The notes under the pieces were generated by a model. The model was not told the DNA's origin and ran no database searches. It was given only the letters and a program-made list of their open reading frames with translations. A program made the position numbers and the translations under genes. Shown piece after piece: positions 1-57,402 of a stretch of 64,000 nt of DNA. Source of the DNA: a virus (lineage: Duplodnaviria; Heunggongvirae; Uroviricota; Caudoviricetes); the IMG/VR virus record IMGVR_UViG_2925897562_000001, one strand, 5' to 3'. Position 1 is the first letter of the stretch. Each line of letters opens with the position of its first letter.

Positions 1-116
1 GCGCGTCGAAAAGCCCAGACCGGCGCGGCAAAACTTGCCCGCAAAAAGTCAATGAAACTGCGCCGTAAGCGCCTTGGCTAAAGGAGGAGGCCGGAGAACT
101 CCGGCCTTTAACTTGA

Positions 117-698
117 ATGGCACCTATTCCTTATGGGGTTTACAGCCAGGCTGACGGTGTATCGCCATTTCTGAAAGTTACTTTAACGAACTCTCAGTAC
201 CAGGTTACCGGATATATCAGCCAGGGGGCGGCAATGAACATGGCCCAGAATTGGGAAGCGCCGTTTACCGGTATGTCCATGGGATCTGTTGCTGGTGCCT
301 TCAGTGGTTTTGCGCAGGTTGGTACTGAAACAACGTCGGTTGCCCGTTGGAACAGCTTAATGGTTTGGGAAGGGGGAACACCGCCGACTTTCACGCTGCC
401 AGTAACTTTCATCGCTTTGTTTGACCCATTCACGGAGGTTTCAGGAGCTATCGCCGCATTGTCAGCGATGATTAGCCCGGAACTTAAAGATGCCAGTATT
501 GGTGGTCGAATCCCGGAGCGCGTGACGCTAAACATTGGTCGCCGGATCAACATCATTGATGTCGCTATCCAGGACATAAGTTTCGATCTCGATGCGCCCA
601 GGGACAGCAATGGGCATTTCCTGAAAAACACCGTCAACCTCCAGTTGACCGGTTCTTCGATATATAACAGCTCCGATATTGTTCGGGCGTTCCAGTAA
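117..698 (+). CDS. hypothetical phage protein (193 aa)
   Basis: Intact ORF with GGAGG-type RBS upstream; no recognisable motif; convergent with repL. Confidence 0.5.
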   Translation: MAPIPYGVYSQADGVSPFLKVTLTNSQYQVTGYISQGAAMNMAQNWEAPFTGMSMGSVAGAFSGFAQVGTETTSVARWNSLMVWEGGTPPTFTLPVTFIALFDPFTEVSGAIAALSAMISPELKDASIGGRIPERVTLNIGRRINIIDVAIQDISFDLDAPRDSNGHFLKNTVNLQLTGSSIYNSSDIVRAFQ

Positions 699-709
699 AA
701 GGATTTTAT

Positions 710-1219
710 ATGGGGCACAATAACACTAAGGGAAACCGTAAATTTATTAAGGGCCGCTATACTGCCAACGCGGCCAAAGGCGAACGACTGGTATCTTCTG
801 AATTCCAGCTCACTTTTGCAGGCCATGAAGATATCAGCGTACTGGTTCGCACGTCGCAAATTCCTGAAATGACCCGCGAGGATGTGGAGGACTATGGTCC
901 GAATGGTGTGAAGTTCAACCAGCACGGACCAATTCGAAACTCTGGGGAAATCCAGGTCCAGTGCGTGGAGACTATCGAAGGCGATATTCTTCAGTTCATC
1001 AAGGATCGCATTGCGGCGAAGGACTATGTTGATATCACGATGGCTGCTACCCCTGAATCCAAATCTTCCGGGGTTAACGCTGTGACAAAAGCTGCTACAA
1101 CAATTGAAATGTTGGACTGCAAAATCTACAGTGATGCAATCGACTTTAGTACCGAAGATGTGACTGCCGCTGTGCGCCCGTCACTTCGTATCGTCTACAA
1201 CTGGATTGAGTGGGATTAA
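710..1219 (+). CDS. hypothetical phage protein (169 aa)
   Basis: Intact ORF 12 nt after previous gene, AAGGA RBS; followed by hairpin terminator. Confidence 0.5.
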   Translation: MGHNNTKGNRKFIKGRYTANAAKGERLVSSEFQLTFAGHEDISVLVRTSQIPEMTREDVEDYGPNGVKFNQHGPIRNSGEIQVQCVETIEGDILQFIKDRIAAKDYVDITMAATPESKSSGVNAVTKAATTIEMLDCKIYSDAIDFSTEDVTAAVRPSLRIVYNWIEWD

Positions 1220-1238
1220 GAGTCATCCCTTGTATTTT

Positions 1239-1264
1239 AAAGCTCCTTCGGGAGCTTTTTTATT
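1239..1264. terminator. rho-independent terminator (probably bidirectional)
   Basis: AAAGCTCC-TTCG-GGAGCTTT stem-loop followed by T-run, between convergent genes. Confidence 0.55.
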
Positions 1265-1335
1265 TGGAGAGGAAAGGGTGCATTGAGGATACCTGACACA
1301 CGAAGAGTGGCGAGGATCTCTCCCCGCCAGGTCTC

Positions 1336-1491
1336 TTACCTTTCAGATTCGTAGGCTGTGAAGACAGTGACCTCCGTCTGGCCGGTTCGGATTCGTACCT
1401 CGCAGAGGTCTTTCCTCGTTACCAGTGCCGTCACAATGACGGTTAAACAGATGACGATCAGAGCGATTAACATCGCTTTTTGCTGCTTCAT
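1336..1491 (-). CDS. hok: Hok/Gef-family membrane toxin (51 aa), type I toxin-antitoxin
   Basis: Hand translation gives MKQQKAMLIALIVICLTVIVTALVTRKDLCEVRIRTGQTEVTVFTAYESER; matches the Hok/Gef/RelF family signature (single TM helix, TRKxLCE, FxAYES); below the 60-aa ORF-track threshold. Confidence 0.8.
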   Translation of the reverse strand: MKQQKAMLIALIVICLTVIVTALVTRKDLCEVRIRTGQTEVTVFTAYESER

Positions 1492-1549
1492 AGCCTGCTT
1501 CTCCTTGACCTTTTGGTCGGTAAGAGGCTAATCTACGTATGCTAAGCAT
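1343..1549 (-). CDS. mok-like overlapping reading frame (68 aa) for translational coupling to hok
   Basis: ORF in a different frame covering almost all of hok, as mok does in hok/sok loci. Confidence 0.4.
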   Translation of the reverse strand: MLSIRRLASYRPKGQGEAGYEAAKSDVNRSDRHLFNRHCDGTGNEERPLRGTNPNRPDGGHCLHSLRI

Positions 1550-1968
1550 AGATATGGCCTCAGATTAATGTTAAGCGTCTTGCAGGACGCGTAATGTTAT
1601 CTGGGGCTTTCTTCTATCTGCTTTTCGGGTAATGCCTGAAGCAGATAGCCTCAAGCACCCGCAACGATTGTATCAATGTCTGGCTTTTTTTCTATAGAAA
1701 TCACCTGGAAGGGTGAATATCCACATCAGAAGAAATGTTGCAGCAAACATGATCCCTAATGGCCAGACCGCGCCAAAGAAAATCCATACTAAGATCTCCT
1801 CTGCTCGTTCTTTGCGGTCGATATCGACAAGCATTTTTCGGCTGATCATGTATACACAGAAGCCAATACAAACATATCCTGCAAAAGCGATCGCTAACTG
1901 TAAAAAATCAGATTGCATCTCCGACCTCAAACTGAAAACGCCAGGTGACTCCAGATTAGAGCAATCTA

Positions 1969-2814
1969 TCACCCCCTGAATCCTGCCGGTATACCCCATT
2001 TTTCGTTATCTTTATTTTTGGCTAAAATCGCATTAAGAGCTTCGTTTACCGTCATGCAATGCGGCAAATTATCGAAGTTTGATACCCCGCCAATATCAGG
2101 AGAACGCTTGTTCTTCAGGTAAGCATATTTCCGCGCTGCCGCCTCTACTTTCTGCTTGAACTCATGTTTTTGAGCGCGTTTTTTGGATAACCGCAGATTG
2201 TCAGCCTTTGCTTTTGCCTCAGCGATCCATGAAGTCAATTTTTTGAGTCTGCTCGTTCCGGCACCGCCGGAAACTGATCTTTTTGTTTTTTTAACTTGTG
2301 ACTTCTTATTCTTTATTGCCACGTCATCCTGACAGGGGGAGGGGGTATCATTTTGACATGGGGGTGTGGATAAAAAATTAAATAAAGCCAATGTCTTAGC
2401 GAGAACAGCTTTAACCTTGGTTGCCGCTGAAGAGATCTTTAATTTGCTTTCAATCAGCGCATTTTTGGCTTGTTGTGCGAAGGCCAAAAAGGATGGTGTA
2501 AACCGGTACAGGTTAGCGCGACGTTCATGGTGATCGCCGATAACAATCTCTACAGACAGAATTCCTTTGTTTACAGCTTCACGGAATGCACGAACGACGG
2601 TTGATTGGCTATAACCAGTTTCTGCCGCGATCAGGCGGTGAGGCTTGTGAATGAAGTATTCACTGGTTGTTGCCGCTAGATTTGCACATTGCGACAGGAT
2701 ATGCCCGGCGCTACGGGATAGACCGGAGTGTGTTACAAAGCAGGCCAATTCATAGCCAGAAAAAGTAAAATCGCTCATCGTTATACAGCTCAGGAAAGTG
2801 ACTTTAGCCAGCAT
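1969..2814 (-). CDS. repL: lytic replication initiator RepL (281 aa)
   Basis: Length and position downstream of kilA match P1 RepL; basic K-rich C-terminal half. Confidence 0.8.
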   Translation of the reverse strand: MLAKVTFLSCITMSDFTFSGYELACFVTHSGLSRSAGHILSQCANLAATTSEYFIHKPHRLIAAETGYSQSTVVRAFREAVNKGILSVEIVIGDHHERRANLYRFTPSFLAFAQQAKNALIESKLKISSAATKVKAVLAKTLALFNFLSTPPCQNDTPSPCQDDVAIKNKKSQVKKTKRSVSGGAGTSRLKKLTSWIAEAKAKADNLRLSKKRAQKHEFKQKVEAAARKYAYLKNKRSPDIGGVSNFDNLPHCMTVNEALNAILAKNKDNEKWGIPAGFRG

Positions 2815-2843
2815 TACAATGCTGGTGGTTCTTACTACGTCTG

Positions 2844-3644
2844 TTAGCGCGTTGCCGCGACAGGTACCAGCACACCAGCATCAAGCAATCGCTTCATCAG
2901 CCACTGCTGACCTTTGCCGGTTATACGAGTCGTGAAAGAAATCCTGCTTCCATTGCTTGTATCGATCACGGTTTCTTTAAGGGTGAAATACCCACGGGAT
3001 ATGTATTCTTGTTTGGGGACGTTCCTGCGTTCACCGGTTGCGATCAGAATTCCGTTATCACGCAACCAGGTGAAGAGATAGTTTTGGCCCAGGCCGAGCA
3101 CTTTGGCATAGTTGCCGATTAGAACTCCGCTGGCGGTAGCAACGCGTTCGGCGAATTCGACTTTAGGTGCATCCATAAGCATTTTTTGCTCCAGCCGTTG
3201 CTTTTGCTCTGCCAGGTCGGCAGCCAAACGGAGAGCTTCAGGGAGACTCTGCGGAATAGCAGGTTGTAATCTTCCGGCTCGATAGTCGATAAATGTCTGG
3301 TTTACCTTCAGCCGAAACGCGGGAGAAATCCAGCCTGCGTACTCCACAGCGAGCAATTCATGGGCAAAAGTGCCGCCGCCACGGCCTTCGAAAGAAACTA
3401 TGCAATTCTGCATAGTTTCTTTTTCAAGCTCTTCGATGAGCTGTTTGGCTGACAGCGTTCTTAGCCATTGAGCTGGCGCTTTATGGGCACCGAGTCCGCT
3501 CGCTCTGTGTAGAGCATTAAGGTTGTAACGGCCAGCGCGGTCGGTCGTAATTTCAACACCACAAATAACAGGCAGAGTGGTTGAAGGATCGACATTTTGA
3601 TGAAGGTTTGATATATTCATATCCGCATTGAATGTTTGTTGCAT
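2844..3644 (-). CDS. kilA: KilA (KilA-N domain protein, 266 aa)
   Basis: 266 aa; C-terminal half (LPEALRLAADLAEQK...GKGQQWL) paralogous to Ant C-terminus; directly upstream of repL. Confidence 0.8.
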   Translation of the reverse strand: MQQTFNADMNISNLHQNVDPSTTLPVICGVEITTDRAGRYNLNALHRASGLGAHKAPAQWLRTLSAKQLIEELEKETMQNCIVSFEGRGGGTFAHELLAVEYAGWISPAFRLKVNQTFIDYRAGRLQPAIPQSLPEALRLAADLAEQKQRLEQKMLMDAPKVEFAERVATASGVLIGNYAKVLGLGQNYLFTWLRDNGILIATGERRNVPKQEYISRGYFTLKETVIDTSNGSRISFTTRITGKGQQWLMKRLLDAGVLVPVAATR

Positions 3645-3713
3645 TTTTTCTCCAAATTTGCATCAACCTTCAATCACCAGCTCGAAATGGTGATTCTTTG
3701 CACTTAGAAAACG

Positions 3714-3730
3714 AAATTTATTAGAGCAAA
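3714..3730. promoter_or_regulatory. C1 repressor operator (Op53-like) upstream of kilA-repL
   Basis: AAATTTATTAGAGCAAA, 16 of 17 to the P1 C1 operator consensus (reverse orientation). Confidence 0.6.
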
Positions 3731-3807
3731 TTTTTCTGGCCCGATCCAGATCGGGTTGGTCGATCTGCTCAGAAACCTGCCAGTTTGCTGGCAGGTTTTT
3801 TCTTTTG

Positions 3808-4851
3808 TTAACCTATTGCTACTGGTTTTAACAAACCAGCATCAAGTAGCTTGCGAGTTAACCACTGCTGGCCTTTACCCGTTAATTGGGGCGTCAGCCG
3901 TATCTGGTAGCCATTTTCATCATCCAGCACCACTTCTTTCACCGTGAAATATCCGGCGTTGATGTACTGCTGGCGCGGTACGTTTTTGCGCGCACCAAAA
4001 GCCATGAGAATGCCGTTCTGGCGCAACCATGAGAAAAGGGCGTTTTGCTTAAGTCCAACGACCTTTGCAAAGTTCCCGATCAGGATTCCATTAGCCGCTG
4101 ATACCCGGTCGGCAAAATCGACTTTAGGGGCTGCGGCCACCAGCTGTTGTTCCAACTGCATTTTCTGTTCTGCCAACTCGGCAGCCAGGCGTAGAGCTTC
4201 TGGTAATGTTTGGGGGATCGATGGGGTAGGTGAGTTTGCCTGCTGCAATTCTTCCAGTTTGTCGATCAGCGAACGGCGGACCGCTTTCGATTCGCGCGCG
4301 GCGACTCGCAGGGCTTGTTTGTAGGTCATGGTTATGACAACCATAGGCGTACCGCCACCTGGCGGCACGGTTGCACTTTTTGTGTAACCGTCCTCACCTT
4401 CTAATTCGTCGAGTATTTTTTCGATGAATTTGTTGTTCCGAACCTCTGGTTCCCCACATAACTTACGCGCTTCATTGACCATCTTTAACAGTGTCAGGCT
4501 GTCGATTGTGTCTCCGGTGGTGGGGATGACATTCACGGCTGGTGCTGACGTTGCTGAAGCAACAGGTGCTGGTTTTTTAACATTCAAATTATTACTGGTC
4601 ATTCTATGTGCCTCCTTTCTCATTTCTGCTGCCACCGTTGCGTAACGTAGACGTCCTTGTTCAATCAAATAATCCCTGATCTCGGCTATCAGTAGCCTGT
4701 TGATCACAGCCTTATCTGTTCGGGTATAAAAACGCCTGGTTATCATGAAATAGTTGGCAATTGCGCCGGGGATCTCCCGTGTCGGCATACAGGCAGTATG
4801 CAGGGCGATCGCTTCGGCTATTTCATTACGGGTGACGAGAGGTTTTTTCAT
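3808..4851 (-). CDS. ant1: antirepressor Ant1 (347 aa; Ant2 from internal in-frame start)
   Basis: Start overlaps icd stop (coupling); C-terminal KilAC-like domain; immI gene order c4-icd-ant. Confidence 0.8.
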   Translation of the reverse strand: MKKPLVTRNEIAEAIALHTACMPTREIPGAIANYFMITRRFYTRTDKAVINRLLIAEIRDYLIEQGRLRYATVAAEMRKEAHRMTSNNLNVKKPAPVASATSAPAVNVIPTTGDTIDSLTLLKMVNEARKLCGEPEVRNNKFIEKILDELEGEDGYTKSATVPPGGGTPMVVITMTYKQALRVAARESKAVRRSLIDKLEELQQANSPTPSIPQTLPEALRLAAELAEQKMQLEQQLVAAAPKVDFADRVSAANGILIGNFAKVVGLKQNALFSWLRQNGILMAFGARKNVPRQQYINAGYFTVKEVVLDDENGYQIRLTPQLTGKGQQWLTRKLLDAGLLKPVAIG

Positions 4852-5383: not shown

Positions 5384-5400
5384 AAATTTATTAGAGCATT
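5384..5400. promoter_or_regulatory. C1 operator (Op51-like) at immI promoter
   Basis: AAATTTATTAGAGCATT, 16 of 17 to C1 operator consensus. Confidence 0.6.
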
Positions 5401-50784: not shown

Positions 50785-50811
50785 TTGACAATTGCTCTAA
50801 TAAATTATAGT
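50785..50811 (+). promoter_or_regulatory. C1-repressed promoter for coi-c1 (TTGACA -35 overlapped by operator ATTGCTCTAATAAATTA)
   Basis: TTGACA at 50785-50790; operator 50791-50807 (16 of 17); TATAGT -10-like. Confidence 0.6.
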
Positions 50812-56616: not shown

Positions 56617-56817
56617 TTATCTGCTGCCCGGCATTCTCTGTTTAAGCACAACCATTTCCTGACGGCATAACACAGCAATAGCAGTCCTGGCTCCAATTTG
56701 CTTACCAACCAGGTATTGCTTTACCTTGCGGCGACTCACGCCATCAAGAAGCATCTTTAACGCTTCACGGGACAATTTGTTGTATTTGCGTGCCATTAAT
56801 CTACTCCGCAGAACCAT
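56617..56817 (-). CDS. PdcA-like small protein
   Basis: Small ORF immediately after doc. Confidence 0.4.
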
Positions 56818-57181
56818 ACAATCTACGTAACGTGTCGGCGACAGAAGATACAGATATCTCGCCAGTCGCAGCGCCTACAGTAAGGTCTGCCAGTTCAGGT
56901 GAATCAAATACCTGCACCCCGTTACGGCGTAGAAATAGCAGCGCACTGTTTAGCGCGGTACGCTTATTGGCATCATTGAATATATGCCCTCTCGCTGTAG
57001 CCACCAGGTAGGTGGCGGAGACTTCGAAAAGGTCGGTGATCTCTTCGTAGGCAACTCTGGCCTGAACTCTCCCGATAATGGCCTCTGCCCTACCCGGATC
57101 TGACATTCCCGGCAGGCCGCCGTAGCGGCTTATATTCGCATCATGAAGCGCAATAAGTTCTTCCGGTGATATATGCCTCAT
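56801..57181 (-). CDS. doc: Doc toxin (Fic-fold kinase), 126 aa
   Basis: [22 protein letters not shown]... matches P1 Doc; coupled to phd. Confidence 0.95.
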
Positions 57182-57402
57182 TATCGGTTAACCAGTTCCT
57201 TGTTGGTGGAGTCCAGGGTGTCAAACAGGGATGCAAATTCAGCATCCAGCGCCGCTTTTTTGTAGGCTTCGAAAGTAGCCTTGCTGACAATTACTGCTGG
57301 CTCACGGCCTCTGCGGGTGATTTCAACCTCTTCCCCGGCTTCAACATTGTTGAGCACTTCAGAAAGGTTGCCACGCGCGGTACGGAAGTTAATGGATTGC
57401 AT
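57181..57402 (-). CDS. phd: Phd antitoxin (73 aa)
   Basis: [39 protein letters not shown]... matches P1 Phd; start set at ATG 57402. Confidence 0.95.

Follow-up and report, generated by a model that had tools for sequence, protein, structure and literature searches.

We conclude that positions 1239-1694 of the window (the whole 64,000-nucleotide stretch of viral DNA analysed here) hold a complete hok/mok/sok locus of the prophage hokD/hokW lineage, carried in an accessory cassette between bplB and repL of a P1-like phage-plasmid, and we give this reading a probability of roughly 0.8. That the locus belongs to the hok/mok/sok toxin-antitoxin systems of type I is almost certain, and it is very likely governed by the canonical RNA switch, to judge from its sequence and predicted folds. 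As to its main role in the element, we lean somewhat towards maintenance of the plasmid-prophage by post-segregational killing, by analogy with plasmid R1. The reading frames and the antisense gene lie as follows.

Positions 1336..1491, minus strand: hok toxin gene, 51 aa, with the Shine-Dalgarno (SD) sequence AAGGAG at 1506-1501; it has a Pfam match and is named hokD or MokW in identical public records.
Positions 1343..1549, minus strand: mok reading frame, 68 codons, with the SD GAGG at 1561-1558 and the stop codon TGA at 1345-1343; shifted by +1 relative to hok.
Positions 1541..1611, plus strand: Sok antisense RNA gene, about 71 nt, in one-to-one base alignment with the sokW annotated in phage 933W.
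Positions 1505..1534, plus strand: Sok promoter, with the -35 TTGACC at 1505-1510, an 18-nt spacer and the -10 TAATCT at 1529-1534.

The 51-aa ORF at 1336..1491 (-) in the ORF listing has exactly the translation quoted in the initial annotation, which had called it a Hok/Gef/RelF-type toxin. This call was borne out by the profile searches, in which the product matched Pfam HOK_GEF (PF01848) with E=2.4e-22 and 78.7 bits (cut-off 22) over profile positions 1-42 of 42, and PHROG 251 ('MokW-like host killing') with E=4.9e-32. In NCBIfam, the toxin scored under the curated cut-offs (49.5 versus 73 for the Hok subfamily and 38.1 versus 89 for the HokA equivalog), and the subfamily name is therefore based on nucleotide similarity and on the PGAP labels in public records. 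At the amino acid level, the toxin is 96% identical to what we take to be the RelF/HokD sequence and 42% identical to what we take to be R1 Hok. Among 45 Hok representatives assayed elsewhere, 42 were toxic, HokD among them (preprint 10.1101/2025.08.07.668861).

A scan of viral contigs yielded 80 loci that encode close relatives, from which came 66 distinct sequences spanning the mRNA; the 66-allele alignment is confined to these close relatives. The hok ORF is short and lies under the usual gene-calling thresholds, and the overlapping 68-aa frame is by itself statistically unremarkable, as would suit a chance small ORF or the functionless remnant of a decayed pseudogene. However, the strength of the Pfam match, an Rfam match of 114.9 bits (below), a full-length toxin, the presence of every RNA element and a hok coding sequence that is near-invariant among the 66 alleles rule this out, and we assign it practically no probability.

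The ATG of mok (1549) lies 58 nt upstream of the hok ATG, and the frame ends 7 nt before the hok stop codon. In alignment with phage 933W, this ATG and the GAGG, which is invariant, coincide with the mokW start as annotated there, and it is for this reason, not for its open length, that we count the 68-aa frame as mok. The shifted frame across hok is free of stops in all 66 alleles, and 11-35% of synonymous hok recodings also keep it open. The mok product had a single match, to a PHROG of unknown function. We observed that in the lambdoid-type alleles (52 of the 66) the mok start position lies 57 nt upstream, in the reading frame of hok itself, which yields an extended Hok of 70 aa; a single allele among these has ATA instead of ATG at the mok start position. 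All 14 P1-type alleles, that of the window included, carry an extra T (1508), which makes the distance 58 nt and therefore puts mok out of frame with hok. The same T turns the Sok -35 from TTGCCT into TTGACC. In an IncFII locus whose Hok we take to be identical to that of R1, mok is in frame with hok. The frame of mok relative to hok thus differs among the family members compared and is not conserved. The overlapping mok-like frame of the initial annotation therefore holds as to its overlap and its own SD, but its out-of-frame layout is specific to the P1-type allele, the nearest relatives being in frame. It has been published that the translation of mok matters and its product does not (PMC9841398), and the shifted frame of the P1-type alleles fits this view.

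In the leader, where room had been noted for a Sok-like antisense RNA, Rfam RF01794 ('sok') matched 1660..1486 (-) over the full 157 positions of the model, with 114.9 bits where the gathering score is 59. Together with the sokW mapping to 1541-1611 and the hairpin described below, this match gives that suggestion substance. RF01794 was the lone significant Rfam match in 1-4000. The strand of the model is that of the hok mRNA and its last position is at the hok AUG; what it depicts is therefore the hok leader in the open conformation, which in RF01794 consists of a tac/ucb stem, the Sok-target hairpin and a mok-SD/dcb stem. The sub-threshold matches in 1-4000 (CRISPR-DR46 on the bplB hairpin, ceN48, sbrA and ctRNA_p42d) were far under their gathering scores and were rejected, and a 21-bit 'sok' match on the plus strand at 1603-1751 was dismissed on the same ground.

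A sok promoter, TTGACC-18-TAATCT at 1505-1534 (+), was found in the leader by reading the sequence together with its alignment with 933W and an R1-type IncFII locus. Its -35 is opposite the hok SD and its -10 adjoins dcb. The -10 agrees with the consensus at 3 of 6 positions, and the promoter is under the threshold of the promoter scan and unlisted by it; the P1-type -35 is better than that of the prophage relatives. The Sok RNA (71-75 nt) is predicted to have a free 5' tail of about 15 nt, a long hairpin and a U-rich tail, with a fold of -30.4 kcal/mol (z=-4.56; 0 of 200 shuffles were as stable), and it is complementary to the mok SD and start codon over their full length. Variation in the locus is greatest in the 22 nt surrounding the mok start, the partner of the Sok 5' tail, for which 64 sequences have 21 alleles. 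This variability fits allele-specific recognition.

The elements of the hok mRNA could be placed as follows.

Positions 1667..1694, minus strand: hok/mok promoter of the sigma-70 type from the promoter scan, with the -35 TAGAAA at 1694-1689, a 16-nt spacer and the extended -10 TGaTACAAT (-10 at 1672-1667).
Positions 1276..1660, minus strand: body of the hok/mok mRNA from tac to fbi, about 385 nt; homology to other hok loci covers exactly 1276-1672.
Positions 1647..1660, minus strand: tac (translational activator element), GGGUGCUUGAGGCU; its partner is fbi in the full-length minimum free energy (MFE) structure and ucb in the Rfam consensus, and it is invariant in the 66 alleles.
Positions 1599..1609, minus strand: ucb (upstream complementary box, or anti-SD), AAGCCCCAGAU; pairs with the mok SD region when closed and with tac when open.
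Positions 1524..1528, minus strand: dcb (downstream complementary box), GCCUC; partner of the mok SD GAGGC when open, from the Rfam consensus and constrained folding.
Positions 1309..1328, minus strand: 3' UTR stem-loop, GGCGGGGAGAGAUCCUCGCC; would protect the processed mRNA at its 3' end, from folds and one compensatory pair.
Positions 1276..1290, minus strand: fbi (fold-back inhibitory element), AUCCUCAAUGCACCC; complementary to tac.

The predicted start of hok/mok transcription is a G at about 1660, where both position 1 of the Rfam model and the conserved 5' end GGGUGCUUGAGG begin, and the transcript probably extends on to the hairpin at 1258-1239. One further minus-strand match of the promoter scan (1574..1545, TTAACA-18-TATGCT) falls inside the leader, where there is no conserved feature, and was treated as noise. 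The range given in the initial annotation, 1336-1620, covers hok, mok and the Sok gene but misses the hok promoter and tac (to 1694) as well as fbi (1276-1290).

The published hallmarks of a hok mRNA are a tac/fbi lock, ucb covering the mok SD and a metastable hairpin at the nascent 5' end; once the 3' end has been trimmed, tac pairs with ucb and the SD with dcb (PMC9841398). By the folds and the Rfam consensus, the window's mRNA has both sets of pairings, tac/fbi as well as the alternative ones of ucb and dcb. From the MFE structure of the 399-nt RNA 1660->1262, we observed a 5'-3' fold-back with a tac/fbi helix of 12 pairs and one bulge, together with the ucb/SD hairpin. In the full-length RNA, the closed form (-154.7 kcal/mol) was better by 10.8 kcal/mol than the enforced open form (-143.9), whereas in the RNA lacking fbi the open form (-131.9) came within 0.6 kcal/mol of the MFE (-132.5). 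In the first 40 nt, tac is predicted to fold onto its neighbouring sequence, which is the expected metastable tac hairpin. As far as such predictions go, the energies reproduce the published closed-to-open pathway.

When the full-length structure derived from the window was applied to the 66 alleles, 93% of the cells were paired, compared with 36-42% with slid partners, and double-change cells numbered 97, compared with 39 in shuffles and 4-20 in slid controls. Compensatory changes were observed in the 5' hairpin, the ucb/SD hairpin, a long-range helix between the leader and the 3' UTR, one hairpin within hok, and the 3' stem-loop. The tac/fbi helix was paired in 98.4% of the alignment cells, the exceptions being two copies disrupted by an insertion sequence (IS). 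Since neither strand of the helix varies among the 66 alleles, tac/fbi showed no covariation, and the backing for this helix comes from conservation and energy. The least variable parts among the alleles are tac, the mok SD, dcb, the hok coding sequence and fbi.

The locus lies in an interval where the window departs from phage P1, and the following features of its surroundings bear on it.

Positions 1262..1954: accessory cassette of 693 bp with an 81-aa membrane ORF and hok/sok, replacing P1 pmgF-rlfB-rlfA (blastn versus P1).
Positions 1239..1258: GC-rich hairpin shared with bplB, in the P1 backbone outside the cassette (terminator scan; fold of 1300->1230).
Positions 1673..1918, minus strand: predicted membrane protein of 81 aa in the same cassette; its stop codon is inside the hok promoter.
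Positions 56804..57402, minus strand: phd/doc, with phd at 57184-57402 and doc at 56804-57181 (tblastn, NCBIfam).

The flanks of the cassette are 96-98% identical to P1, and the P1 counterpart pmgF-rlfB-rlfA measures 1826 bp against the 693 bp of the window. Going by the annotated P1 record, the neighbours are pmgG and bplB upstream and repL (1969..2814), kilA (2844..3644), ant and icd downstream, repL being 98% identical to the annotated P1 repL. The left junction is directly after the bplB terminator hairpin, P1 homology reaching 1261, and the right junction falls within the C1 operator Orlf (ATTGCTCTAAT, at 1965-1955; operator comparison). The rlfA-rlfB-pmgF segment is one of eight variable regions in P1-like phage-plasmids (PMC9603915). 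The initial annotation had placed the module next to the lytic replicon, in an accessory position and as a second, RNA-regulated module, and on each point the context agrees with it: repL adjoins the cassette, the cassette takes the place of a published variable region, and phd/doc is in the same window (NCBIfam TIGR01552, E=5.4e-13; TIGR01550 DOC_P1, E=4.3e-39). The 81-aa protein matches phrog_3772 (unknown function) with E=1.7e-53, corresponding to residues 28-108 of a 108-aa ORF, and is annotated in sister plasmids as a 246-nt hypothetical CDS. Homology to the prophage hok loci breaks off precisely at fbi, which leaves the cassette without its own terminator; the bplB hairpin presumably serves instead. 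This hairpin is a clear terminator on the plus strand; with its poor U tract on the hok strand, it is a probable, weaker terminator of the hok mRNA.

Many plasmids in PLSDB, 85-118 kb in size and found in Escherichia, Salmonella, Shigella and Klebsiella, contain the 901-bp bplB-cassette-repL stretch at full length and 99-100% identity; in these, PGAP labels the ORF 'hokD: type I toxin-antitoxin system toxin HokD'. Most of the hok locus is present in at least 448 PLSDB plasmids, versus 99 with the cassette of the P1 reference. Phage records with the cassette include phi456, MH422554 ('MokW'), MH445380/1 and Ro157c2YLVW, and a table entry in a 2019 paper gives '2 orfs including antibacterial toxin' in place of rlfA, rlfB and pmgF (PMC6906374). 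The locus has thus been annotated before, under the name hokD, in the public records of hundreds of plasmids.

We also observed a hot spot for IS186-family elements between hok and fbi, occupied in about 40% of sister plasmids (161 with the IS versus 216 intact). A target of this family, GGATCTCTCC, is present in the window at 1314-1323 inside the 3' stem-loop and is used in sister plasmids (PMC6906374); IS junctions were seen in three relatives' loci (L010, L019 and L087). Some sister plasmids are without hok, and some retain sok only. Given the IS insertions and the hok-less sister plasmids, the module is dispensable for the element.

Outside the P1 group, the nearest relatives are prophage hokD/hokW loci with 87-91% identity, found in 4738 of 5426 complete E. 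coli genomes. Over the region from the -10 to fbi (1276-1672), nucleotide identity is 87.6% to hokW/mokW/sokW of 933W and 91% to the Rac-type hok/mok locus, and the Hok proteins of the 933W, lambdoid and Rac-type loci are 94-98% identical to that of the window. In the 933W-type loci, tac, ucb, mok SD, dcb, 3' stem-loop and fbi follow one another as in the window and with the same sequences, and sokW equals the window's Sok in position and length. However, the window differs from them in its extra T, which gives it a 68-aa Mok where they have a Hok extended at the N-terminus to 70 aa, and in the sequence of the Sok 5'-tail target. It differs also in its -35 region and downstream terminator, as homology stops at the -10 and at fbi. 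Its locus is on a plasmid-prophage, whereas theirs are on integrated prophages. The window allele derives from the chromosomal or prophage hokD/hokW lineage and not from the plasmid lineage.

Chromosomes with the K-12 hokD (relF) match only query positions 196-425 of 439 nt (the coding and 3' part), and the K-12-type locus is therefore without the mok/Sok leader. Such a truncated structure is ruled out for the window by its complete leader (RF01794), and the PGAP name 'hokD' therefore denotes a toxin subtype, not the structure of the K-12 locus.

In R1-type loci, as in the window, the Sok gene is convergent with its promoter overlapping the dcb and hok SD region, and fbi is followed by a terminator hairpin; this comparison was made through the IncFII locus whose Hok is presumably that of R1. 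The R1 hok/mok/sok locus (parB) shares with the window the overall architecture and the tac/fbi, tac/ucb, SD/ucb and SD/dcb pairings (PMC9841398). Both R1 and the window's element are low-copy plasmids. A nucleotide search of PLSDB with the window locus returned no R1-type matches, the leader and Sok being too diverged, and the Sok-target hairpin of the window exceeds the Rfam consensus by an extra apical stem of 18 nt. For R1, experiments have demonstrated killing and stabilisation, whereas for the window allele both are predictions. The phd/doc system of P1, present on the same element, has the same presumed purpose of plasmid-prophage addiction, but it belongs to type II, its antitoxin being a protein that a protease degrades, and is unrelated to hok/sok in sequence and mechanism.

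The mechanism that we propose follows the published R1 model (PMC9841398 and work cited therein), and we infer post-segregational killing, toxicity, transcription, processing and Sok instability by analogy with it. The constitutive promoter at 1694-1667 would produce a stable mRNA of about 385-420 nt, in which tac (1660-1647) would pair with fbi (1290-1276) while ucb would hide the mok SD, so that ribosomes and Sok would both be excluded. Slow 3' trimming to the stem-loop at 1328-1309 would strip off fbi, upon which tac would pair with ucb and the mok SD with dcb, opening the mok start to translation and to Sok; translation of mok would be needed for that of hok. As long as the element is present, the unstable Sok of about 71 nt (1541-1611, +) would pair with the opened region and the duplex would be destroyed. 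Upon loss of the plasmid-prophage, or a stop of transcription, Sok would decay first and the pool of processed mRNA would be translated, and the 51-aa Hok would depolarise the inner membrane and kill the cell. By these steps, the locus would give the element a second addiction module, regulated by RNA, in addition to phd/doc. In the literature searched, we found no experimental study of the hok/sok allele in P1-like elements.

A complete locus may also be tightly self-silenced, a selfish or neutral passenger from a lambdoid prophage that does not stabilise the plasmid. Its nearest relatives being prophage and chromosomal hokD/hokW loci, present in most complete E. coli genomes at 87-91% identity, is in keeping with this, as are the presence of phd/doc in the element, the 161 plasmids with an IS between hok and fbi, compared with 216 that are intact, and the existence of hok-less sister plasmids. 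Moreover, the chromosomal hokA, hokB and hokC of E. coli, although seemingly complete, are reported to show neither post-segregational killing nor activation by rifampicin (preprint 10.1101/2025.08.07.668861, citing earlier work). Against a mere passenger, all the regulatory elements are intact and 99-100% conserved in hundreds of plasmids from several genera, and the P1-type Sok -35 is better than that of the prophage relatives. The ratio of about 4:1 between this cassette and the P1-reference arrangement fits a selective benefit, but hitch-hiking could also explain it. We regard the passenger role as rather unlikely, though it carries some weight.

Abortive infection against other phages, or competition between phage-plasmids, with Hok released by host transcription shut-off or by plasmid displacement, appears improbable to us. 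R1 hok/sok was originally reported to exclude T4, but a recent re-test found no protection by R1 hok/Sok against T4 (both in PMC13047441, the former as summarised there). The high variability of the Sok 5'-tail target and the sok-only sister plasmids would fit an allele-specific conflict, and an orphan Sok in the latter may serve as an anti-addiction device in displacing hok-bearing relatives. However, hok is not enriched near defence systems (preprint 10.1101/2025.08.07.668861), and within the window nothing links the cassette to a defence island. We hold it to be decidedly improbable that the cassette is wired to the prophage's own lysis-lysogeny switch and is more than an addiction module alone. 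It is directly downstream of the C1-repressed kilA-repL operon in the same orientation, its right junction interrupts the C1 operator Orlf, and the weak hairpin at 1716-1701 is all that separates the hok locus from upstream transcription. Read-through upon induction would then run head-on into the Sok promoter, so that less Sok would be made and Hok would be released; if true, killing would be coupled to lytic commitment or to the loss of C1. Plasmid-prophage maintenance by post-segregational killing is the role that we favour, tempered by the reported failure of chromosomal hok loci to kill in this way, by the lack of T4 protection from R1 hok/Sok, and by the frequent IS insertions and hok losses in sister plasmids.

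The locus leaves the understanding of the hok/sok mechanism itself unchanged. It does indicate that the P1 laboratory reference is atypical here, as most sequenced natural P1-like phage-plasmids have a hok/mok/sok cassette beside phd/doc, while public records mark the toxin ORF alone and leave mok, Sok and the RNA switch unannotated. The combination of two independent addiction systems, one protein-based and one RNA-based, on phage-plasmids that spread resistance genes could help explain their persistence.

All P1-type hok alleles are set apart from the lambdoid hokW/hokD alleles by the insertion of a single T at window position 1508. This insertion places mok (1343-1549) and hok in different frames, and the same T also improves the Sok -35 element, from TTGCCT to TTGACC. 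The features of the locus and of the sister loci considered here are as follows.

Features in the window and in sister loci
1314-1323: IS186/IS421-family target, uninterrupted in the window
1350-1353, minus strand: hok codon 47 (Tyr47), UAC then G
1673-1918, minus strand: 81-aa predicted membrane protein (phrog_3772)
3714-3730, 5384-5400 and 50791-50807, plus further positions: C1 operator sites close to consensus, from a whole-window scan
L085:1501-1675 (pS159-2) and L086:1801-1890 (pYJ4-b): retained Sok gene, equivalent of window 1526-1615
L010, L019 and L087:2388 onward: IS186/IS421-family insertion at the hok 3' stem-loop

We observed that the Tyr47 codon and the G following it are unchanged in 66 of 66 alleles. 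In hokC, hokD and hokE the equivalent Tyr reportedly undergoes A-to-I editing by TadA, which yields a second cysteine required for full toxicity (preprint 10.1101/2025.08.07.668861), and the motif CUACGAA found at that edited Tyr is also present in the window's hok allele.

Between the stop codon of hok and fbi, the GC-rich 3' stem-loop forms a hot spot for insertion of IS186/IS421-family elements, whose 10-bp target, GGATCTCTCC, was reported for pSvP1 (PMC6906374). Among PLSDB plasmids, the hok-IS junction was present in 161 and an uninterrupted hok 3' end in 216. As the IS parts fbi from the body of the hok mRNA, the inert reservoir form of this mRNA should be lost, much as in the chromosomal hok loci inactivated by IS elements.

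Some P1-like plasmids, pS159-2 and pYJ4-b, carry the Sok gene without the hok coding sequence, in place of which stands a 198-aa ORF on the opposite strand. Their Sok gene is that of the window, except for two bases adjoining the -10 in pYJ4-b; its promoter keeps the -10 (TAATCT) and has a new -35-like element, TTGCTC. This orphan antitoxin RNA could be either a leftover or an anti-addiction device. The 81-aa ORF, which accompanies hok/sok within the cassette, is still present in variants that lack hok. The hok promoter contains the stop codon of this ORF, whose 3' end also holds a weak hairpin resembling a terminator (1716-1701).

On its right-hand side, the cassette has its recombination junction (1949-1965) inside the P1 C1 operator Orlf, of which the conserved half, ATTGCTCTAAT, was retained and the other part replaced. 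The near-consensus C1 sites, with one mismatch to ATTGCTCTAATAAATTT, occupy positions corresponding to P1 OrepL and Oc4, among others, and confirm that the immunity circuit is of P1 type.

Variability in the hok/sok locus peaks at 1536-1557, the stretch around the mok start with which the 5' tail of Sok pairs (21 alleles among 64 sequences), the remainder being highly conserved. Such allelic diversity suggests that this stretch has diversified in a way that avoids cross-talk among co-resident hok/sok copies.
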